Shown here: positions 5,861 to 64,000 of the stretch, piece by piece
How positions within the stretch are numbered: position 1 is the first letter of the stretch
How the letters are laid out: every line of letters starts with the position of its first letter
DNA from: an uncultured virus (IMG/VR IMGVR_UViG_3300044701_002566)
Lineage: Duplodnaviria > Heunggongvirae > Uroviricota > Caudoviricetes
IMG/VR virus record: IMGVR_UViG_3300044701_002566
Strand: one strand, 5' to 3'
Length of the DNA: 64,000 bases
Notes under the pieces: model-generated
What the model was told of the DNA's origin: nothing
Seen by the model: only the letters and a program-made list of their open reading frames with translations
Databases searched by the model: none
Position numbers and translations under genes: made by a program

Positions 5861-6418
5861 ATGAGCATCAAAATCATTGGTCTTTACAGCCCCGCCCCCG
5901 GCTCGGGCAAGTCAACTGTTGCAAGCTACCTAGAAGACTATGGCTGGGAGATTGTCCCATTTGCTTCAACCCTGAAAAGAATGTTGAAGGCCATGCTGAT
6001 GGAGATCGGCTATTCAATGTGCGAAGCGGAAGAGCTGATCCTGAAGAAGGAATATATCGTCCCTGAGCTTGGCGTAAGAATCAGAACGCTAATGCAAACA
6101 CTTGGAACAGAGTGGGGGCGAGAAAAAATCGAAAAAAGATTTTGGATTAAATGTTGGGAGGCGAAAGTGAAATCTCTTGGTTCTTTCGTGGTAGCAGACG
6201 ATGTGAGATTTCTCAATGAAGCAATGGCTATCAAGGAGATGGGCGGGGAAATATGGAAGATTATTCGCCCCGGAACCGAGAATGGCGAAAATCATTCCTC
6301 CGAGGGCCAGCTTGATCATTGGGATGGTTTCTCTCGTATTATCGTAAACGACGGGTCAATTCAAGATCTGCACGACAAGCTGAGCAGCTTCCTGATCAAT
6401 GCTGAAGGACAAAAATGA
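5861..6418 (+). CDS. Deoxynucleoside monophosphate kinase
   Basis: APGSGKST, RTLMQTLGTEWGR, DDVRFLNE and HSSE motifs. Confidence 0.88.
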   Translation: MSIKIIGLYSPAPGSGKSTVASYLEDYGWEIVPFASTLKRMLKAMLMEIGYSMCEAEELILKKEYIVPELGVRIRTLMQTLGTEWGREKIEKRFWIKCWEAKVKSLGSFVVADDVRFLNEAMAIKEMGGEIWKIIRPGTENGENHSSEGQLDHWDGFSRIIVNDGSIQDLHDKLSSFLINAEGQK

Positions 6419-7142
6419 CGAGTTCTACGATGCAAGGCTTGTAGCCACTGCAAAGCTGCATCTTCCTGCCATCATGAACAGGCAGAAATCACCTTTCTTT
6501 TTTGAGGTGATGAACGAAATCGTAGAAAGAAAAGTTTACAAAGGTTACAAAAACGTCAAGGGGCGGGAAATAAAACTTTCGGGAATCAAAGACTTTTTGT
6601 TTAATGTTCGTCATGGGCTTGGCATCAGAAACTTGCCAGAGTTTTTAGGCAACTGCGCCCACCTTGAACTTGCCGATAAATCGAAGCGGAAATACGCAAG
6701 AAGATTTATTGACTGGCTCAAAAATGAAGATCCCAAATCTTTTGTTTTTCCGCCCTCGTACTGGGAATTTAGGCGACTGACGATCGCCATTTCCGAAATG
6801 AAAGGGGGCGAGGACAGAAGGATGAGATACTATGACATGCTTTCAATTATCCATAATACCCACCCCGAGATCTTAATTCACATAGGGCCTGGGCGCAAAT
6901 ACCAGTCAATTCCAGAAGCTTACAAAAAAGAAGGATATATTGTAGAGGCTAAGTCTGTAAAGACACTTAGGCTTTCTCACGCCCCCACCTACAAGGAGGT
7001 CGAGGCCCTGGCCAGGGAGCTGAACTCAAGGCTTGACAAGCTAAAAAACAGAGTTTTGATTGCTAAGCTGATCGAGATTTACAAGATCAACGAGGCAGTC
7101 GAAAACCATGTTATCATCGACCCTTCGGAAGACGAAGACTAA
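6399..7142 (+). CDS. Hypothetical protein
   Basis: 247 aa ORF within the operon. Confidence 0.7.
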   Translation: MLKDKNDEFYDARLVATAKLHLPAIMNRQKSPFFFEVMNEIVERKVYKGYKNVKGREIKLSGIKDFLFNVRHGLGIRNLPEFLGNCAHLELADKSKRKYARRFIDWLKNEDPKSFVFPPSYWEFRRLTIAISEMKGGEDRRMRYYDMLSIIHNTHPEILIHIGPGRKYQSIPEAYKKEGYIVEAKSVKTLRLSHAPTYKEVEALARELNSRLDKLKNRVLIAKLIEIYKINEAVENHVIIDPSEDED

Positions 7143-7635
7143 CGAGATCGAGTTCTTCGTTTCTGGCGCCCCTGCTGCTCAGGGCAGCAAAACCGCTTTC
7201 GGGCGAGTGGTTCCAGGCAAGGACGGCAAGCCCAAGGCGATCGTGAACATGGTCGAGCAGGACAAGGGCCTGAACGAGTGGCGATATTCCGTTGCTCAGA
7301 TGGGGCGACTAATGAAACCAAAGGATTGGGACAGGAAGGGCATTTTTATGGTTTCGGCAATATTTTACATGCCACGCCCCAAGTCCCATCTTGATGCAAG
7401 GGGCGAGGTAAGAGCAAGCGCCCCCGTTTTTCACTCATCTCGCAAAGACTGTGATAAGATGCTCCGTGCTATTGGCGACGCTCTAACAGAAGTCTGTTAC
7501 GACGACGACGCCCTGGTTGTTTCGGTCTCTGGCCTCAAGGTCTATGCAGGCGAAGACGGGCCTGGGGCGCGAATCGCTGTGACTCGTCTTGATGAGGTCG
7601 CCGCCTCGCGGCAAATCCAAGCTCTGCTCTTCTGA
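7108..7635 (+). CDS. rusA: RusA-family Holliday junction resolvase
   Basis: GAPAAQGSK, DCDKMLRAIGDALT and YDDDALVV motifs. Confidence 0.88.
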   Translation: MLSSTLRKTKTNEIEFFVSGAPAAQGSKTAFGRVVPGKDGKPKAIVNMVEQDKGLNEWRYSVAQMGRLMKPKDWDRKGIFMVSAIFYMPRPKSHLDARGEVRASAPVFHSSRKDCDKMLRAIGDALTEVCYDDDALVVSVSGLKVYAGEDGPGARIAVTRLDEVAASRQIQALLF

Positions 7636-7696
7636 CTTTTTACTTGCAAGCCCGCCCCTCATGCTGTAGGATTAGCAGGCAGTCAACAAAAGGCAA

Positions 7697-8239
7697 ATGC
7701 CTCGCCGCAAACCCACCACAGAAGAAACCGACACCGCCACTTCCCCCGAGTCAACCGAAATGCCTACCGCTGAAGCCACCCTGGAAATGGAAGCAACCAC
7801 CGAAACCGCAAAGCCCAAAATCATCAAGGGCGAGCGTCTGGTTGGTCAAGCCCTGCTTGATTACGTTCTTGCCAACCGCAGCCTCCCGAGCAACGAGGTC
7901 GTGTTCGGCGCTGGCTACTACTCCAAGCGCATCGACCCCGAGACTGGGGAAGAGAAGATCACCTACCAGAAGCAGACCTTCCACGAGGCCATCAACGCCG
8001 CCAACGGCATCGAGCTGGCCCCCGCCACCCGTGCCTACGCCCCCCGCAAGAACCGTTCCCCGGTGATCAAGCTGGGCAAGCAGGGCAGCATCGTGGTCGG
8101 AGGCCGTCACAGCGAGGTCGCCGGCTTTGCCCCCGAGACCAAGGTTGAAGTGAAGGCCGAGCCTGGTCGTATCACCATCATCGCGTTCGCAGACGGTGAC
8201 ACTGAAGCTGCCGACACTTCCGCCGAACTGGAACTCTGA
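7697..8239 (+). CDS. Cyanobacterial AbrB-like (cyAbrB) transcriptional regulator
   Basis: LVGQALLD..., GYY, F.EAI.AA.G and a C-terminal GSIVVG...GF.P..KVEV...PGRITI swapped-hairpin pattern. Confidence 0.75.
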   Translation: MPRRKPTTEETDTATSPESTEMPTAEATLEMEATTETAKPKIIKGERLVGQALLDYVLANRSLPSNEVVFGAGYYSKRIDPETGEEKITYQKQTFHEAINAANGIELAPATRAYAPRKNRSPVIKLGKQGSIVVGGRHSEVAGFAPETKVEVKAEPGRITIIAFADGDTEAADTSAELEL

Positions 8240-8266
8240 TACAAAGATCTCGTCATGAGATTCCTG

Positions 8267-8288
8267 GCCCCGATTCGTCGGGGCTTTT
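8267..8288 (+). terminator. Intrinsic terminator
   Basis: GCCCCGA-ttcg-TCGGGGC followed by TTTT. Confidence 0.8.
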
Positions 8289-8308
8289 CTTTACAATTTT
8301 TTGCCCCC

Positions 8309-8710
8309 ATGTCCCTTCTTCAGCAGGCCAACGAATTTAGAGAGGCTTTTGGATTCAGTAATCATTTCAGCATTGCTGGATTTCAGCTTCAAAAGCGCTT
8401 GATCAATGAAGAGTATTACGAAGTAGTCTGCGCTTGCGTAGAGTGCCAGGACAAAGAATTTAACATTGGCAGCAAAATCGAGCTGTTGAAGGAACTCTCG
8501 GACCTTGTTTTTGTTTGCTACCAAATGGCTGCATACATGAACATTGATCTCGATACTGCAATGTCTCGTGTCTTTGAAAGCAACATGAGCAAGCTGGGCG
8601 AGGACGGAAAGCCGGTGAGGCGAGAAGATGGAAAAGTTCTGAAGGGACCGAACTACCAACCGCCCGAGCTGCTAGATTTGGTGTTTCATAGCCCCGAATC
8701 CGATTCATGA
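8309..8710 (+). CDS. MazG-like/PRA-PH NTP pyrophosphohydrolase
   Basis: LINEEYYE, KELSDLVFV, VFESNMSKL and DGKVLKG motifs. Confidence 0.88.
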   Translation: MSLLQQANEFREAFGFSNHFSIAGFQLQKRLINEEYYEVVCACVECQDKEFNIGSKIELLKELSDLVFVCYQMAAYMNIDLDTAMSRVFESNMSKLGEDGKPVRREDGKVLKGPNYQPPELLDLVFHSPESDS

Positions 8711-8865
8711 AAAACTGTCACCCGTCAGAGGAAGACCCCAAGGTGGCACTGCTGGAAAGCCTGTATCGAGCCGATGGGCGCCACGAGAAAGGCCACCCCA
8801 TGCACGGCCTCTACACCGGCCTGTATCAGGCTCACATCGCTTCTCAGGAGCAGGAGGCGGCGTGA
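8707..8865 (+). CDS. Small hypothetical protein (52 aa)
   Basis: ATGA/TGATG-coupled; LYRADGRH...HGLYTGLY. Confidence 0.6.
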   Translation: MKNCHPSEEDPKVALLESLYRADGRHEKGHPMHGLYTGLYQAHIASQEQEAA

Positions 8866-9026
8866 TGAACAAGGAAGAACTGACTGACTTTTTCTACGAA
8901 TGGTTCACTGACAGCTACCCAAGGGTGAAGCCGTCAAATCACACTGTTGATTCACATGTTGCTTTTGCAACTGAAGTGATGAAACACTTCCTTGTGGCAA
9001 ATGAAGACTTCATGGGCGAGGATTGA
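8865..9026 (+). CDS. Small hypothetical protein (53 aa)
   Basis: TGATG-coupled on both sides. Confidence 0.6.
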   Translation: MNKEELTDFFYEWFTDSYPRVKPSNHTVDSHVAFATEVMKHFLVANEDFMGED

Positions 9027-9385
9027 TGTTTGAAGACGACAGTGCAAGATTCGCAAAGTCTTCAAAGTGTCCAAAATGCGGAGAGCATCTCTTTAGAGTT
9101 GCCGAATCTCGCAATGTCAACGGGATCAAGAGAAGGAGGAGGATTTGCGGTGATAAAGACTGCAATCACCGCGAAACCACCTATGAAATCAGCTCTGCTG
9201 ATTATCAATTCCTGAACAAGGCCAGGGCGGTCGAAAGAATCTTTTCGGGCGCCAAAAATGCAAAGTCCAGCAGTCAAGTAACTTGTGATTCCTGCGTTCA
9301 ATGGAAGAATGGAGGATGTGACTTTGACTTCCCCGAGGCAGGGGGTAGATTTGCCGAGGAATGCAGTCTTTACGACCGACGCTAA
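9026..9385 (+). CDS. Zinc-ribbon protein with NrdR-like N-terminus
   Basis: KCPKCG...V.ESR...RRRRIC...C.HRETTYE; second Cys cluster; no ATP cone. Confidence 0.75.
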   Translation: MFEDDSARFAKSSKCPKCGEHLFRVAESRNVNGIKRRRRICGDKDCNHRETTYEISSADYQFLNKARAVERIFSGAKNAKSSSQVTCDSCVQWKNGGCDFDFPEAGGRFAEECSLYDRR

Positions 9386-9388
9386 TCA

Positions 9389-9904
9389 ATGTCTTTTCTT
9401 CATGACTCTCAAATCAGAAAGCTCTGCAAAGATGGGATGGTCGAAGACTATCTCGATGAATACGTCGGGCCGTGCTCCCTCGATGTCCGCCTTGGCGAAA
9501 AAATTATGGTGGAAACACCAGATTCGCAAGATCTTGTGCGTTTCTCAATCCGGGGAACTACCAAGCAAAATCCATACCTGCTAAAACCACAGCAATTCAT
9601 TCTCGCCCATACAGTTGAACTTTTCAACATCCCCGACACACTTTGCGCTTTTTTCGCCCTAAAAAGCAGTAGGGGGCGTGAAGGAATTTCGCACGTACTT
9701 GCAGGCTTCTGTGATGCAGGCTGGAGAAACAGCAGGCTTACACTTGAGCTTCACTCTGTTCGCCAGTATCATTCAATTCCGATCTGGCATAACATGCCTA
9801 TTGGGCAAATGGTATTTGGTACGATGGTCGCCCCTCCTCACAAGAGTTATTCCCTGGTGGGGCGATATAACAATTGCGATACCGTTGAGCCCAGCAAGGG
9901 TTAA
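9389..9904 (+). CDS. dcd: dCTP deaminase
   Basis: PCSLDVRLG, FILAHTVE, KSSRGREG and AGFCDAGW motifs. Confidence 0.9.
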   Translation: MSFLHDSQIRKLCKDGMVEDYLDEYVGPCSLDVRLGEKIMVETPDSQDLVRFSIRGTTKQNPYLLKPQQFILAHTVELFNIPDTLCAFFALKSSRGREGISHVLAGFCDAGWRNSRLTLELHSVRQYHSIPIWHNMPIGQMVFGTMVAPPHKSYSLVGRYNNCDTVEPSKG

Positions 9905-44371: not shown

Positions 44372-44998
44372 CTACACCCAGTCGTAAAGCGCCACTTCAA
44401 AGCGGGCACAATCTTCCACAATCGTAGCCTTAATTGCCTTCACTTCATCGTGCCGTGGCTTTCCTTGCCAGAAACGATCATGCCACTCCACATAAATGGC
44501 TTTCACCCATTGCCCCACGTTGCTTATTTCAAGGAGTCGTGGTAGCACTTCAAACTCGGCCCCTTCAATGTCACACTTAACGTAGATGGTGGCATCGCTG
44601 TCCGCGTCAATAATCTCCTGCACGATTCGCTTCACATCCACTGCTTGCACTTGATGCTTCTCGCAATGATGCAGCTCAATCTCAGTCAATGGTTCCATCA
44701 CGCAAGTGGAACCTGCTTTGTAGCCAGGCAGCCACTTAAATGTCACCACAGCATCTTCTGTGCCAACAGCAGCATGAATAGCCTGAAACGAAATAAAACG
44801 CTCTGCGATGGACGGAACGACTGCTTTGTTTGCTTCGACTGCATGAGCGGAAGGTTCAAACGTGAGAACATGCCAATCGTAAAGCGGTTTATCGCCAAAG
44901 AACAGTTCCCGCTCAAAAGTGAGCAGGCCGCTTTCGCAGCCTGAATACTTCCCACCATTGTCCAAGTAGTGAGTGCCGAAGTCAAGAAAGTATTTCAC
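44372..44998 (-). CDS. FkbM-family SAM methyltransferase
   Basis: FLDFG, FEP, VKCDIEGAEF and YVEWH motifs; GTGA overlap with the upstream stop. Confidence 0.85.
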   Translation of the reverse strand: MKYFLDFGTHYLDNGGKYSGCESGLLTFERELFFGDKPLYDWHVLTFEPSAHAVEANKAVVPSIAERFISFQAIHAAVGTEDAVVTFKWLPGYKAGSTCVMEPLTEIELHHCEKHQVQAVDVKRIVQEIIDADSDATIYVKCDIEGAEFEVLPRLLEISNVGQWVKAIYVEWHDRFWQGKPRHDEVKAIKATIVEDCARFEVALYDWV

Positions 44999-45705
44999 TG
45001 ATAAATCAAGCGGTCGTGCCAGAGTTGATTGTAGTTGTTGGTGCCCTTGGCTCCCAATGCCGACAGGTCTCCGCCGCCCGCTGGCTTGCCCCATGCAAGA
45101 ATCGTCCCATCGGGCAGGACAAATGCAGTGTTCTGGTTTTGATGAGTGGGGGTCAGTTGCACGAAGTCACCATAAACAAACGATGACTGCTCTCCATGCC
45201 GAGCCAGTGCTTGCCCCAGTACGGGAGTAGCAGTAGGGGACAATGGAGTGATGCCGTAGTATTTGTTCCGGCAGTTCTCCACAATCTGATGGATGGCGTG
45301 ACGAAGCGCAGGATTGCCTGGCTTGGAGAACAGAACAGCGGTCATGCACGCCCAGCAAGTGCCGGTAAACTTCTGGATTTCACGGAAGGCGAGAAAGTCA
45401 ATGCGATCAGCAAGCTCAACAGGAGAATGAAGCCTGATTGCAATGTCAAAGTACCAGCCTCCAACAATGTAAAGGATGCAGAACCTGCCCAAGTCTGCTC
45501 TGTTGGAATAGGAACGAAGACTGTCATAAGCATCAACAACATCCTGCTCAAAGTGCTCAACGATGAACGCTCTAAGTGTTTCGTTGTCATACCGCACATA
45601 GTCGGCACCAGGAAAACCTGCTCGCACTGTATTGGTAAACAGTTGCAATGCTTCCGGCAGCTCCTTGCCACCGTTGTCATTCAGGAAGATTTGGGAAACT
45701 TGCAT
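44995..45705 (-). CDS. GT32/Gly_transf_sug-like glycosyltransferase
   Basis: RADLGRFCILY..GGWYFD (second Asp of the DxD motif is Ala). Confidence 0.78.
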   Translation of the reverse strand: MQVSQIFLNDNGGKELPEALQLFTNTVRAGFPGADYVRYDNETLRAFIVEHFEQDVVDAYDSLRSYSNRADLGRFCILYIVGGWYFDIAIRLHSPVELADRIDFLAFREIQKFTGTCWACMTAVLFSKPGNPALRHAIHQIVENCRNKYYGITPLSPTATPVLGQALARHGEQSSFVYGDFVQLTPTHQNQNTAFVLPDGTILAWGKPAGGGDLSALGAKGTNNYNQLWHDRLIYQ

Positions 45706-45707
45706 GA

Positions 45708-46931
45708 TCAGGCCACCTTCACGGGGGCACCAAAGCCCTTGAACTCAGGCGCCTTCGCCTCGGGAGTCAGCAGCTCATTGATGTAACCAAGCATCTTGTT
45801 GGTGACGTGCTTCCAAGTGAACTGCTCTTCGTGAATACGGTTGTGACACCACACGCCATCTTCCTCCATCAGCTCACGGTTGTAGTAGTAACTGTCGAGC
45901 AGTTCGGCCAGGTGATCTGCCGATACTTGCCCACGTTCCAGTCCGTAGTTTCTGTCGGTTTCCCAGCTTTCTACTGCAATGCGCGGCACCTCGTCAAAGA
46001 TTTCCTTCAGACTGGTGTGATCTGGCACCAACTGCGGGCGACCAGTTGCAGCGTGCTCAGTATTCACCAAGCCCCAACCCTCTCCCAAGCAGGTATTCAC
46101 GCCAACATCCACTGCGTTGTACACCTTATTGAGCTGCTCAATGGGAAGACAGTTGTGGGTGGAGAAGTTGGGACTGGTCAAAATGAGCTTCCCAGTGGAG
46201 TCATAACCCTCGTCTCGGGCAACACGCTTGAACAGTGGCACCACTTCCCACCCCATGTCTTTCTTGCCCATGTTCAGCCACAGTCGAGCATCAGGCTTGT
46301 CTTTTGCAAACTTGATAAAGCCCTTAATGGTCAAGTCAATGCGTTTGCGTGGTTGGTTCCTGTTGCCATTGAATACAATGAATACATCCTCGGGAACACC
46401 CACGTCCTTCCTGCACTGCTCCTTGTTCAGCGGGAAGAACTTGCTGAAGTCAGTGCCATGTCCGACAATGCCAATGGGACGGGTGTAGCCCATCTTCTCG
46501 ATTTCCAGCTTGGCAAACTCGGTGTAGGTGATGAGCTTGTCCCACTTTTCCAGAGCAGGTAACAGTTCAGGAAACAGCCCGTAGGAGTCAATGGGAGTGT
46601 AAACACAAGTCTTGAAGTTCAGCTTTTCCTTGAGCGGCTCAATGCGGTCGATCAGACTGATAGCCACCCAAATGTCATTGACAATGAACACCACGTCTGG
46701 CTTGATGGTTTGCACCAGTTCGGCAATGCGATGGGAGCCGAACGGGTCAGAGCCGTGCGCCATTGCAGGAAACATCTGGCAATGCTGCTGCATGGGCGAG
46801 GGGTCGCCGTGGTGATTGACCGCAAGTGCGAACACTTCATGCTCTTTAGCGAGAGCAGGAATAAGGTATTCTGCAACGCGACCGAAGCCCGTCTGCACGC
46901 CCGCATCGCCGCAATAAAGGATTTTCGCCAC
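45708..46931 (-). CDS. GT4-family glycosyltransferase
   Basis: TGFGRVA, NRNQPRKRID and YNAVD...GEGWGL..TEHAATG motifs. Confidence 0.88.
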   Translation of the reverse strand: MAKILYCGDAGVQTGFGRVAEYLIPALAKEHEVFALAVNHHGDPSPMQQHCQMFPAMAHGSDPFGSHRIAELVQTIKPDVVFIVNDIWVAISLIDRIEPLKEKLNFKTCVYTPIDSYGLFPELLPALEKWDKLITYTEFAKLEIEKMGYTRPIGIVGHGTDFSKFFPLNKEQCRKDVGVPEDVFIVFNGNRNQPRKRIDLTIKGFIKFAKDKPDARLWLNMGKKDMGWEVVPLFKRVARDEGYDSTGKLILTSPNFSTHNCLPIEQLNKVYNAVDVGVNTCLGEGWGLVNTEHAATGRPQLVPDHTSLKEIFDEVPRIAVESWETDRNYGLERGQVSADHLAELLDSYYYNRELMEEDGVWCHNRIHEEQFTWKHVTNKMLGYINELLTPEAKAPEFKGFGAPVKVA

Positions 46932-61744: not shown

Positions 61745-62437
61745 TCAGCCTAGGCTACTCTCAGCTCGGCGCTTGGCGGAGCCGTGAGCGAGGAATCCGA
61801 TGATAATACGCTTGCCACGCTTGTGACAGAGCATACAACTAGAGCATGTTTTCGTATTTTCCCGCTGCGCGGGGCAGACTAGCACTACGTTGCCGGCTGG
61901 CGTGTGCCAGGAAGTGCGCGATTCTCCGGAAGACACTACCATCACCGCCGGCAATCCTGCCGCAATAGCATCATCGGCCGCAGTTTCATTCTCGGTCGAA
62001 ACATTGATCGTAAACCCCTGCCGGTTAGCCTGTTTAATCAGGCTAAGGTTCTCACCTAATGTGAGGCTGTGGTGAGTGTAAGTGTAGGCTTTAAGATGTT
62101 TCACGGCGGCGATCATGCCGCGCATGAATGCGCGCGAGATTCTGCCTCCAGTGTGCGGCAGATCGCCAGCTTGATTGTGTCGGAGAGGCATCCCTGCAGG
62201 AAGTCGCCTGAGAGCGGCCAGGAAGGCTCTGAAGGGCACGCCACGGCGCCCATCGGTCACCTCCCGCCAGTGGAGCGCGAGAGGCCCACTAGCCGCGTAG
62301 CACCCGCCGCCATTCTCAGGAGAGAAAGGACATGACGGCGGGCAGGTGGAGCGACTGGAAGTCGTAACCGGCATCGGACCCGTCTTGACGTTGCTAGAAA
62401 CCGGCGTCAGATGAAAAAACAGGTCGGAGAGTTTCAT
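61745..62437 (-). CDS. gp88-like Cys-rich protein
   Basis: SSNVKTGP, TCPPSCP, CYA, RHNQAGDL, YTH, CPAQ, C..C.LC and GFLAHG motifs; ATG at 62437. Confidence 0.75.
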   Translation of the reverse strand: MKLSDLFFHLTPVSSNVKTGPMPVTTSSRSTCPPSCPFSPENGGGCYAASGPLALHWREVTDGRRGVPFRAFLAALRRLPAGMPLRHNQAGDLPHTGGRISRAFMRGMIAAVKHLKAYTYTHHSLTLGENLSLIKQANRQGFTINVSTENETAADDAIAAGLPAVMVVSSGESRTSWHTPAGNVVLVCPAQRENTKTCSSCMLCHKRGKRIIIGFLAHGSAKRRAESSLG

Positions 62438-62474
62438 GGAGAGAGAGAGAGAGAGAGGGAGAGGGAGAGAGAGG

Positions 62475-62642
62475 TCAGTTCTCGAACGGCTCATCCCATA
62501 CGACCGTCTGACCGGAAGCGGTCTGGCGCTGCGCGGGGCGTGTGGGGCGTGTGGGGCGTGTGGGGCTCTGCCAGCGAGGGGACTGAGCGGGCAGACCGTT
62601 GGCGCCCATTGGCCAATACCCCATGAGAGTGGTGTCTTCCAT
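62475..62642 (-). CDS. 55-aa micro-ORF (MEDTTLMGYW...PTRPTRPTRP...WDEPFEN)
   Basis: Hand translation; pyrimidine-rich leader like the neighbouring gene. Confidence 0.45.
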   Translation of the reverse strand: MEDTTLMGYWPMGANGLPAQSPRWQSPTRPTRPTRPAQRQTASGQTVVWDEPFEN

Positions 62643-63015
62643 GATGAGAGGGAGAGGGAACAGAGCGGCTCAGAGTCATCTCCGATTCGCTGACGTCAGC
62701 TTGCCGTCACACCGCCACCACGGCGCCGCATCGTAGGACGGTTTCTCGACTGGCACACTAGGCCGCAGAGTGGGCAGGTTCCAGCCATGGCCGCTTGTCT
62801 AGCACTGTTTGCATCCTGCAGACTATCGGCAGTCAAGAATTGAACAGAGTGGTTAGGCTATCTCACCGCACCACGATCACACGCTCTCAGCATGCCGAAC
62901 CGTTCGGGCAGGTAGGCTATCTCAACACACCGATGCGGCACCTAGCACGGATCGACGCCACCGCGACGGATTGTCACAATCCGTTGCAAAGGTTTCCCCA
63001 TCGGCGAACCGTACT

Positions 63016-63308
63016 GATCACCATTGCTTGTCGATCAGGATTGCTGATCATTCGGGCAGGATTGATCAGTATTGCTTGTCGATCAGGATTGCTGATGTTT
63101 CGACCAGGATTGATCAGTATTGCTTATCTGATAAGGGATGGTGATGTTTCGGGCAGGAACGATAAGGATCCCTTATCGATAAGGAATGCTTATGTTTCGG
63201 CCGGCAACGATAAGCTCAGCTTATGATACAAACGTACTACAGTACAAACGTACTACAGTACAAGTGTACTATAAGCTCAGCTTATGTTACAGATAAGCCA
63301 GGCTTATG
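63016..63308. promoter_or_regulatory. Eleven 17-bp GAT(A/C)AG-N5-CT(T/G)AT palindromic boxes (LysR-type T-N11-A)
   Basis: Boxes at 63016, 63033, 63064, 63081, 63112, 63130, 63161, 63178, 63209, 63270 and 63292. Confidence 0.75.
63226..63270. promoter_or_regulatory. Tandem cyanobacterial LexA-box-like sites
   Basis: GTAC every 8 bp, five times; AGTACAAGTGTACT and AGTACAAACGTACT fit RGTAC-N4-GTAC. Confidence 0.7.
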
Positions 63309-63343
63309 TTACGAAATGTTACGAAATGTTACGAAATGTAACG
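63308..63343. promoter_or_regulatory. 10-bp GTTACGAAAT direct repeats (HLR1/RpaB-like)
   Basis: Units at 63308, 63318 and 63328; degenerate unit at 63338. Confidence 0.6.
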
Positions 63344-63362
63344 ATTGCGAATGATTCTCAAT
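63344..63362. promoter_or_regulatory. Fur-box-like 9-1-9 palindrome
   Basis: ATTGCGAAT-G-ATTCTCAAT; 8 of 9 positions symmetric. Confidence 0.65.
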
Positions 63363-63390
63363 AGCAAGAAGCCTCTGGCTGGGTGTTTAG

Positions 63391-63452
63391 ATACGCCTCC
63401 AGCCGGTTCTCATACGCCTCTAGCCGGTTCTCATACGCCCCTGGCCGGTCCC
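63391..63452. repeat. Three 21-bp direct repeats (iteron-like)
   Basis: ATACGCCTC(C/T)AGCCGGTTCTC at 63391 and 63412; degenerate copy at 63433. Confidence 0.85.
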
Positions 63453-63475
63453 GGTTTAGGCATCTGGCCGGTTCT

Positions 63476-63769
63476 TCAGTGGCCTCTACGACCCCCAGCG
63501 AACCGGCCTACATAGGCATTCCACATGCCAATGGGCATGTCACCCGGCCTGTAAAGCACATAGCCTCCATCCTCTACTCCCAGCTCAGCGTCATGAAGCC
63601 ACATGCCGCTGCATTTGCCTTCCCCGCTGAAAAGGCCAATTTGCCTTTCTCTATCACGCATGGACAGGCGAACGTGAAACAACACCTCCCGTAGGAGCAC
63701 TGCCTGATAGACGCCTTGCGAGGGAGGAAAATCCTCCCCATTGGGCTGATAGGTGCGGATTGTCACCAT
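63476..63769 (-). CDS. Hypothetical protein
   Basis: ORF track. Confidence 0.5.
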   Translation of the reverse strand: MVTIRTYQPNGEDFPPSQGVYQAVLLREVLFHVRLSMRDRERQIGLFSGEGKCSGMWLHDAELGVEDGGYVLYRPGDMPIGMWNAYVGRFAGGRRGH

Positions 63770-64000
63770 TGATCATCCCCTTCACTGTCTTCAATTATCT
63801 CTACGAAATACGGCCCCATGGCCGCATAGGCTTCATGAAGCTCAGCTTCTTCGCCCTGGTGAAGAGTGTAGTCTTCAAAGCCTTCTTCGTTCCAGAAGTG
63901 CCAACAATCAGACATTGGTCAAGCCTCGATGATGCGAAAATCGGGATCATTGTTTCTTTTGATCCATCGACATTGATTGAACTGAGGAAGCACGATGAAC

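Follow-up and report, generated by a model that had tools for sequence, protein, structure and literature searches.

The 64,000-nucleotide stretch analysed here (the window) comes from an uncultured virus of the Caudoviricetes (IMG/VR record IMGVR_UViG_3300044701_002566) and carries, at 62680–63476, a non-coding array of about 800 bp, built from abutting repeat modules that resemble binding sites of several host transcription regulators. The window covers most of the genome of a siphovirus, an S-CBS4-like freshwater cyanosiphovirus, and the proteins found in it include the portal, large terminase, major head and tape measure proteins, a sigma factor and Erf, together with both ribonucleotide reductase subunits. 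Synechococcus phage S-CBS4 is the closest named relative, with a portal identity of 62.4%. A second IMG/VR fragment (G001) is 100% identical across 62300–64000 and reaches 10 kb further to the right. The genes on either side of the array both read leftwards. To its right are about 25 small early genes, the array standing at the end of this block, while to its left small open reading frames (ORFs) and the DUF7227 gene start below 62680, with the ribonucleotide reductase genes beyond. The array occupies the junction of the early operon with the DUF7227–ribonucleotide reductase genes, beside 21-bp repeats that are specific to the phage. Its modules and the two flanking genes are listed below from right to left.

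63476..63769, minus strand: gene for a 97-aa protein, last gene of the early operon; it ends at the first 21-bp repeat
63391..63476, minus strand: four direct repeats of 21–23 bp, core CCGGCYRG-N4-GTAT (minus strand), copies 3–4 degenerate
63344..63362, no strand: 9-1-9 palindrome ATTGCGAAT-G-ATTCTCAAT, box of the Fur family (Zur type), one arm degenerate
63305..63342, minus strand: four HLR1-like (RpaB-type) octamers with a 10-bp period, GTTACATT, GTAACATT (twice) and GTAACATA
63271–63285 and 63293–63307, no strand: two further LysR-type dyads, from the pattern scan
63225–63238, 63241–63254 and 63257–63270, no strand: three LexA-type boxes with a 16-bp period, RGTACNNNDGTWCB
63210..63224, no strand: LysR-type dyad ATAAGCTCAGCTTAT, from the pattern scan
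63015..63200, no strand: four 48-bp units, each with two LysR-type dyads, GATC-rich
62963..62987, no strand: palindrome GCGACGGATTGT-C-ACAATCCGTTGC, arms 62963–62974 and 62976–62987, from the repeat search
62854..62931, plus strand: 19-nt direct-repeat pair TAGGCTATCTCA..., copies 59 bp apart, 89% identity
62736..62760, minus strand: conserved leader motif GTGCCAGT...ACCGTCC, not a palindrome
61745..62437, minus strand: DUF7227 gene, downstream of the array

Along the direction of transcription the array opens with its conserved module, the four 21-bp repeats, which are followed by the 9-1-9 palindrome, the four HLR1-like octamers, the three LexA-type boxes and the 5-N5-5 dyads of LysR type. 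The predicted regulator cassettes of the window are ten of LysR type, three of LexA type, four RpaB/HLR1 octamers and one of Zur type. Tandem Repeats Finder reports a 21-bp unit in 2.8 copies (63391–63449), a 10-bp unit in 3.9 copies (63306–63344), a 16-bp unit in 2.8 copies (63227–63271) and a 48-bp unit in 3.9 copies (63015–63200), and a repeat search adds a weaker fourth copy of the 21-bp repeat that extends to 63476. A pattern scan of the entire 64 kb places the 21-bp core, the LexA pattern, the ATAAGC dyad, GTAC-N4-GTAC and a relaxed HLR1 pair only within 62680–63480. The LexA-type boxes at 63241–63254 and 63257–63270 match RGTACNNNDGTWCB and that at 63225–63238 does so with 1 mismatch. 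The HLR1-like octamers have the expected spacing geometry, with 1 mismatch in the first pair (17 of 18 positions), the Zur-type box has 2 mismatches to the published consensus AATGATNATCATT, and the LysR-type boxes show both the T-N11-A and the 5-N5-5 geometry. With at most 1 mismatch, ATMAG-N5-CTKAT matches 15 times in the 64 kb, ten times in 63034–63307 and 5 times elsewhere. Dyads within the 48-bp units start at 63034, 63065, 63082, 63113, 63131, 63162 and 63179, and since their spacing alternates between 17 and 31 bp, the units are pairs of dyads.

This pairing explains the eleven LysR boxes that had been counted in an earlier reading of the letters of this DNA (hereafter, the sequence-only reading); ten of them are dyads within the 1-mismatch limit, whereas the eleventh (around 63017) has 2 mismatches by eye. 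Nearly all of the anatomy described in that reading was recovered. It saw about 700 bp without a credible gene, and the ORFs inside (62795–63226, plus strand, and 63383–63694, plus strand) have no Pfam or PHROG family match, Rfam gives no family at gathering score in the array but only two sub-threshold rows, and no tRNA genes were found there. The TAGGCTATCTCA pair (62854 and 62913), the palindrome around 62966, the second palindrome of 9-1-9 form and the three 21-bp repeats are all present, as are five GTAC motifs at 8-bp spacing (GTAC-N4-GTAC at 63234, 63242, 63250 and 63258). The abutting of motifs, which it also described, is true from about 63207 to 63476. However, GGACGGT..ACTGGCAC at 62736, read there as an imperfect palindrome, is no inverted repeat but a conserved piece of the downstream leader.

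To compare the modules with known operators, a panel of consensus sites from published studies was run on 42 distinct arrays, each with 900 bp on both sides, against their upstream flanks and shuffled arrays. The LexA pattern (RGTACNNNDGTWCB and AGTACWNWTGTACT in PMC3091678) is present in 24/42 arrays, compared with 1/42 flanks and 0.4 in the shuffles. HLR1, the RpaB site, is given in PMC6525291 as two (G/T)TTACA(T/A)(T/A) direct repeats 2 nt apart; with at most 1 mismatch it occurs in 9/42 arrays, 0/42 flanks and 0.0 shuffles, and as an exact pair in 1/42 arrays. The Zur box core AATGATNATCATT (PMC9337993), again with at most 1 mismatch, is found in 11/42 arrays, 4/42 flanks and 0.0 shuffles; exact cores occur in 0/42 arrays, and all four flank matches are the start of a small gene. 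NtcA-like TGTA-N8-TACA sites are seen in 5/42 arrays, 0/42 flanks and 0.6 shuffles. The patterns of E. coli LexA, B. subtilis LexA, CRP and E. coli PhoB (Pho) each occur in 0/42 arrays, and so does the DnaA box TTWTNCACA. Published LysR patterns failed to distinguish the arrays from the controls, with NdhR (ATAG-N8-CTAT) in 0/42 arrays and CmpR (TTA-N7-TAA) in 11/42 against 6.1 in the shuffles. The dyad of the window has the geometry of the RbcR consensus ATTA(G/A)-N5-(C/T)TAAT, which is listed in a review (PMC13249358) for Synechocystis, a distant cyanobacterium, and carries the half-site ATAAG or ATCAG instead of ATTAG.

Host-side counterparts of these modules were sought in 101 cyanobacterial genomes of one family (1.0–3.9 Mb, sizes fitting picocyanobacteria), the cyanobacterial genomes having been reached through a sigma-factor relative. 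In 8/20 small cyanobacterial genomes the LexA box AGTACNNNNGTACT (at most 1 mismatch) lies upstream of recA, and 4 of these 8 boxes carry the GTACTAT extension that is common in the phage boxes; the other 12 recA upstream regions have a 2-mismatch site only, or none within 2 mismatches. The LysR-type dyad ATAAGC-N3-GCTTAT has 45 sites in 34/101 host-family genomes, against 0 for the reversed control, and the exact 15-mer of the window, ATAAGCTCAGCTTAT, has 7 sites in 6 of these genomes. When 30 host dyad sites were examined, 28 fell outside any ORF of at least 150 aa, 12 were positioned 110–125 bp upstream of a 103-aa BMC-domain (CsoS1-type carboxysome shell) gene, 5–6 preceded a 2Fe-2S ferredoxin gene and 4 preceded a DUF2811 gene. 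A single LysR-type (PF00126) regulator was present in each of the five host-family genomes checked (5/5). In its own right the host dyad (loci L333–L362) is a conserved intergenic picocyanobacterial element, its carboxysome-shell site being divergent from a Ham1 gene and the ferredoxin being 99 aa long.

The palindrome GAGAAT(C/G)ATTCTC occurs in hosts, as intergenic copies, between a FUR-family gene and ZnuA (L382) and also at CobW/COG0523 genes (L393, L384), and for this reason we assign it to Zur and not to Fur. GAGAAT-N-ATTCTC is not enriched in the host-family genomes (27 sites vs 20 for the control), and about half of the sites are inside ORFs. The sequence-only reading had proposed stacked sites of several host regulators, Fur among them; LexA at recA, LysR at csoS1 and a Fur-family box stand, while Fur itself gives way to Zur. 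Its RpaB sites are borne out in part, as the HLR1 geometry and 17/18 positions fit, but the strict phage-type HLR1 pair occurs in just 1/101 host-family genomes, upstream of a ChlI-like gene in a low-quality stretch. Likewise, the strict dual Pho box occurs in 1/101 genomes, a criterion too strict to validate PhoB. Because these strict pairs are nearly absent from hosts, both assignments rest on the published consensus sequences, and the comparison shows that the phage Pho and HLR1 copies are, as sequences, nearer to the consensus than the sites of the hosts themselves. The 21-bp core is not enriched either, with 9 matches in the 101 genomes, fewer than for the reversed control, and the repeat is probably read by a phage protein. 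Judged by sequence, three module types (LexA, LysR dyad and Zur palindrome) match real picocyanobacterial operators.

A search with the DUF7227 protein gave 52 IMG/VR loci. All 23 loci with at least 60% identity have a repeat array within about 1.6 kb upstream (23/23), and the 21-bp family is absent from all 24 more distant DUF7227 loci scanned. A scan for two 21-bp cores gave 108 IMG/VR stretches, 80 of which were retrieved; together with the DUF7227 loci these displayed at least 51 distinct arrays. The sequence-only reading had named a lack of such arrays in relatives as a ground for refutation, and this ground falls away, as relatives do carry them; a nucleotide search of the array region against 50,697 phage records returned no match. 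Every displayed array opens with 3–5 copies of the 21–23-bp repeat directly after the early operon, and beyond these repeats each phage has a different mixture of tandem modules. Module families other than those named here were read by eye from the displayed arrays, without counts. Module order is not fixed. HLR1-like runs precede the LexA box in the window, follow it in L083, L112 and L125 and occur both before and after it in L127, and in relatives Pho boxes occur on both sides of LexA boxes. The palindrome of the relatives is a perfect GAGAAT(C/G)ATTCTC, Zur-type boxes are located 5–25 bp upstream of LexA boxes in many relatives, and the LexA boxes of relatives contain TACTAT or TACTGT, like the host recA boxes.

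Relatives appear to swap in PhoB arrays (9–25 Pho boxes) and NtcA-like sites. The Pho box is described in PMC1906773 as an 8-bp CTTAACCT with 3-bp linkers, and an array of at least three such tandem boxes is not found in the window but in relatives only: an IMG/VR scan for at least three tandem CTTAACCT boxes gave 13 loci, 12 of them from this phage group, and in these 12 loci Tandem Repeats Finder counts 9–25 copies with an 11-bp period. In five Pho-type loci, each of the seven embedded LexA boxes has a Pho box immediately to its left, with a gap of 0, and this Pho box stands 10 bp before TACTAT. An analogous IMG/VR scan for three HLR1-type heptamers was dropped as non-specific because at least 120 unrelated AT-rich repeats matched, including those of giant-virus contigs.

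Phage proteins alone might bind the array, in which case the likeness to host operators would be convergent or irrelevant and the array an ordinary regulatory or structural element of the phage. Three observations would suit such an explanation. The 21-bp repeat, which is the best conserved of the modules, is no host motif; for many module families no binder can be named; and family searches leave most early genes without a known function. However, for three module types matching operators occur at the host genes where they would be expected, and the non-cyanobacterial control motifs are absent from the panel (0/42). Moreover, no cognate DNA-binding domain was found in the five complete relatives, where searches for OmpR-type, LexA, FUR and LysR DNA-binding domains were negative in 5/5, and the early genes near the array have no DNA-binding domain except for a weak GerE match (E = 0.0014). 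We consider binding by phage proteins alone to be quite improbable. The 97-aa protein is conserved beside every array (55 distinct homologs in array loci) and was considered as a candidate binder of the 21-bp repeat. Its structure model is alpha/beta and confident (pLDDT 88.4), but the PDB contains no matching fold at E <= 0.001 and a protein-atlas search produced nothing usable, so a role in DNA binding gained no support.

The 21-bp repeats also raise the possibility of a regulator-gated replication origin, in which they would serve as iterons for a phage initiator, adjoining AT-richer repeats would melt and host-factor sites would tune firing. Iteron origins such as P1 oriR, RK2 oriV and lambda ori contain 3–5 direct repeats of about 20 bp in helical phase, near AT-richer DNA and host-factor sites. 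The array shares the iteron-type repeats and the AT-richer DNA: its 3–5 direct repeats, spaced at 21–23 bp, are conserved in the group and are not a host motif, the window has four of them in helical phase with a GC content of 0.41 nearby (63050–63349), and strongly AT-rich DNA comes right after the repeats in L014, L063, L095 and L096. GATC is dense (18 per 800 bp), and in a complete 74-kb relative the array is the sole large tandem-repeat region. The array differs from iteron origins in having no DnaA boxes (0/42 arrays), no adjacent initiator gene and mostly operators unrelated to replication. The homolog of the helicase/primase gene is 11.6–12.7 kb away in 5/5 complete relatives, a second small candidate lies directly behind that gene (L332 3584–3684, G124) with two 21-bp repeats and an AT-rich palindrome, and the cumulative GC skew reflects gene orientation without marking out the array. 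We consider a replication origin improbable.

Another possibility is a protein roadblock or entry-stop region as in T5, where tandemly bound host proteins would stop incoming DNA, read-through transcription or replication forks after the early block. The array is non-coding, rich in repeats and palindromes, contains boxes for host proteins and directly follows about 25 small early genes, and the T5 injection stop (iss) region is described in similar terms (10.1101/866236) as a large untranslated region after the first-expressed genes of a siphovirus, with repeats, inverted repeats and palindromes. According to the same source, the iss region has ordered boxes for a host protein (8 DnaA). It belongs to a terminal repeat at a fixed genome end. 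The array has no DnaA boxes (0/42) and carries boxes of stress and nutrient regulators instead. Furthermore, the five complete relatives (73–74 kb) close on a 93-bp overlap, and in 5/5 of them the array is 8–11 kb from the terminase gene. The sequence-only reading had raised a coating of the first-injected DNA; none of the present observations puts the array close to a genome end. Public sequencing comprises 4 DNA runs from at most two freshwater samples (labelled freshwater metagenomes), which contain the stretch as assembled contigs only, so genome ends are not readable from them. A T5-like stop region has in our view a very slight probability. The array is identical wherever the contigs of these runs cover it and is unbroken in three runs, with the run X4 breaking at 63090–63119; the remaining contig breaks are at GA and 9-bp repeats (62431–62566).

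The position of the array upstream of co-oriented genes permits a further explanation, namely that it is the control region of an early-to-middle phage promoter and acts as a sensor of host state. LexA and Zur would repress the promoter core, activators of RbcR, RpaB or PhoB type would act from upstream, and DUF7227, ribonucleotide reductase and later genes would respond to DNA damage, metals, light and nutrients. The arrays of relatives end at a conserved promoter-like and leader region, TACTAT or TACTGT lies inside their LexA boxes as in the host recA boxes, Zur-type boxes precede LexA boxes at 5–25 bp in many relatives, and copies of the LexA, Zur and NtcA boxes are low in number. The position of the Pho box, 10 bp before TACTAT at 7/7 LexA boxes, gives the geometry of PhoB promoters (PMC1906773), and host PhoB is reported to control cyanophage genes (PMC10976474). 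On the other hand, a scan of 62300–63900 for sigma-70 consensus promoters found none (0 promoters), although TACTGT/TACTAT can be read by eye inside the LexA boxes as a possible −10, and the LexA boxes themselves form the one weak terminator-like hairpin of the same scan. Relative to the LexA box, the activator arrays vary in order and in side, and 10–25 activator sites extend hundreds of bp from any single promoter. We regard a sensor as the main function of the array as possible but rather unlikely.

Downstream of the arrays in L005–L027, about 300–100 bp before the small ORFs ahead of DUF7227, a promoter-like TTGAC..CATGGTAT and a CGCGC palindrome are present. Relatives also have a conserved leader of about 200 nt that includes GTGCCA..ACCGTCC and has its window counterpart at 62700–62830; it may be a structured RNA or a 5' untranslated region. 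At the other side of the array, the small gene that precedes the array in relatives has a GC hairpin and then a T run within its coding end (..EEAALKAAF..), for example in L011 at about 2890–2930. The stem sequence varies among relatives and the small gene itself is absent from the window; the hairpin and T run may be a terminator that closes the early operon. The start of the same small gene, ATGATTCTCATTGATTTC (MILIDF), has 1 mismatch to the Zur-box core.

The explanation that we tentatively prefer, with a confidence somewhat short of even, is that the array is a cassette locus of predicted high-affinity sites for host global transcription factors, with a landing pad or decoy as its main function. 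From the anatomy of the array, its conservation, its matches to host operators and the finding of no cognate binders encoded by the phage, we infer that host regulators would bind the array, might be titrated by it and might thereby bring the phage some benefit. In such a mechanism, host regulators would load onto the phage DNA; as phage genomes multiply, the consensus sites would outnumber the fewer and weaker operators of the host and drain the regulators. Activator-dependent programmes (carbon fixation, Pho and RpaB) would then be turned down, whereas the LexA and Zur regulons would be derepressed. The same occupancy may also feed into the adjoining phage promoter, and the decoy and the sensor are compatible readings. 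Copy numbers far beyond the use of one promoter, sites of consensus quality, the variable module order and the multiplication of site number by genome replication all support a decoy. Cyanophages inhibit the CO2 fixation of their hosts, and sequestration of an activator of the carboxysome operon would fit this inhibition. Decoy sites are reported to titrate PhoB in E. coli (PMC8599769).

Several points weigh against a decoy. Boxes for LexA (1–3 copies), Zur (1–2) and NtcA (1) are no more numerous than ordinary operators, and a Pho box set 10 bp before TACTAT looks like a promoter activated by PhoB and repressed by LexA; the abutting of a Pho box at 7/7 LexA boxes suits a sensor better than a sponge. 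The phage gains no obvious benefit from draining PhoB. Strict phage-type Pho and HLR1 patterns each occur in 1/101 host-family genomes, so that the assignment uses the consensus of other cyanobacteria, one arm of the Zur-type box in the window is degenerate, the LysR dyad is one base per half-site off the Synechocystis RbcR consensus, and for many module families, read by eye, no binder can be named.

A broader proposal would be that S-CBS4-like cyanosiphoviruses reprogram the host by DNA and not by proteins, through a swappable locus of RbcR-type, LexA, Zur, RpaB, PhoB and NtcA operators that is amplified by replication and drains the regulators. Carbon fixation and nutrient responses would be shut down, SOS and metal uptake would be turned on, and phages would exchange cassettes among themselves to match their lake or host. 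We put this forward as a possibility that is itself doubtful. None of the usual host-like metabolic genes of cyanophages is in the S-CBS4 annotation.

The S-CBS4 record (NC_016766; L057 34213–34420, L056 1–351) breaks off within its homolog of the 97-aa gene and picks up again a short way upstream of the gene for ribonucleotide reductase. With a length of 69.4 kb it falls 4–5 kb short of the complete relatives, and DUF7227 has no match in it. The array locus is probably missing from this record, perhaps because repeats broke the assembly. Pyrimidine-only tracts stand on the coding strand directly before start codons, at 62439–62473 in the window, where the sequence is CTCTCT..., and also upstream of 62642. 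The true start of DUF7227 is probably the ATG at 62437, preceded by the first of these, a 35-nt CT tract, at which contigs of the public runs break. In L005–L023 a pyrimidine tract is likewise found just before the DUF7227 start, the form in relatives being CTTTCTTTC, and such tracts may serve as a leader for Shine-Dalgarno-independent translation. Among the small ORFs that separate the array from DUF7227 there is also a perfect 9-bp repeat, GGGGCGTGT, in 3.6 copies (62535–62566). Elsewhere in the window, genes for a dNMP kinase, a MazG-like pyrophosphohydrolase and a dCTP deaminase occur at 5861–9904, and two transferase-like genes and a methyltransferase adjoin the portal gene at 44372–46931; these gene sets might point to modified DNA. 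GATC occurs 510 times per 64 kb, about 2x the expected number.

Such arrays were not found described in open-access papers and bioRxiv, and neither was a natural phage-borne decoy for several regulators. The closest known systems are single host-regulator sites in cyanophage promoters, the T5 iss region with its DnaA boxes, and engineered or incidental decoys. SOS promoters of temperate phages and colicins carry a group of one to three LexA boxes, and the box encloses a −10-like hexamer; in contrast, the LexA boxes of the array are embedded among arrays of other regulators, and no integrase or repressor is present in the annotated parts of the phage. Binding of host PhoB to cyanophage upstream regions is reported in PMC10976474, and PMC6525291 mentions occurrences of HLR1 in cyanophage genomes. 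Like the array, these cyanophage promoters (with Pho boxes at P-SSM2 pstS and S-PM2d genes, or HLR1) place sites for host factors on phage DNA. However, they have 1–3 sites for one regulator at one gene, whereas the array combines the sites of 4–6 regulators without spacers, in up to about 25 tandem copies, and reshuffles them. Tandem consensus decoys are described as able to sequester a regulator from promoters (PMC8599769, PMC3322331, PMC7826281), and the decoys covered there (PhoB in E. coli, repeated sites in yeast and synthetic ones) are chromosomal background sites or engineered; the array is natural and is carried by a phage.

Phages have so far been known to borrow one host regulator per promoter, and decoys are built deliberately by engineers. 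A viral locus with sites for 4–6 global regulators of the host, reshuffled and in up to about 25 copies, is a host interface on another scale. Should the array sequester regulators, it would amount to a protein-free takeover of the host and could explain how cyanosiphoviruses without genes for photosynthesis or carbon metabolism redirect the cell. If it senses the host, it would be a compact multi-input switch that couples infection with light, carbon, phosphate, zinc and DNA damage. Both readings make testable predictions and provide a free catalogue of picocyanobacterial operators, including the dyad upstream of the carboxysome operon.

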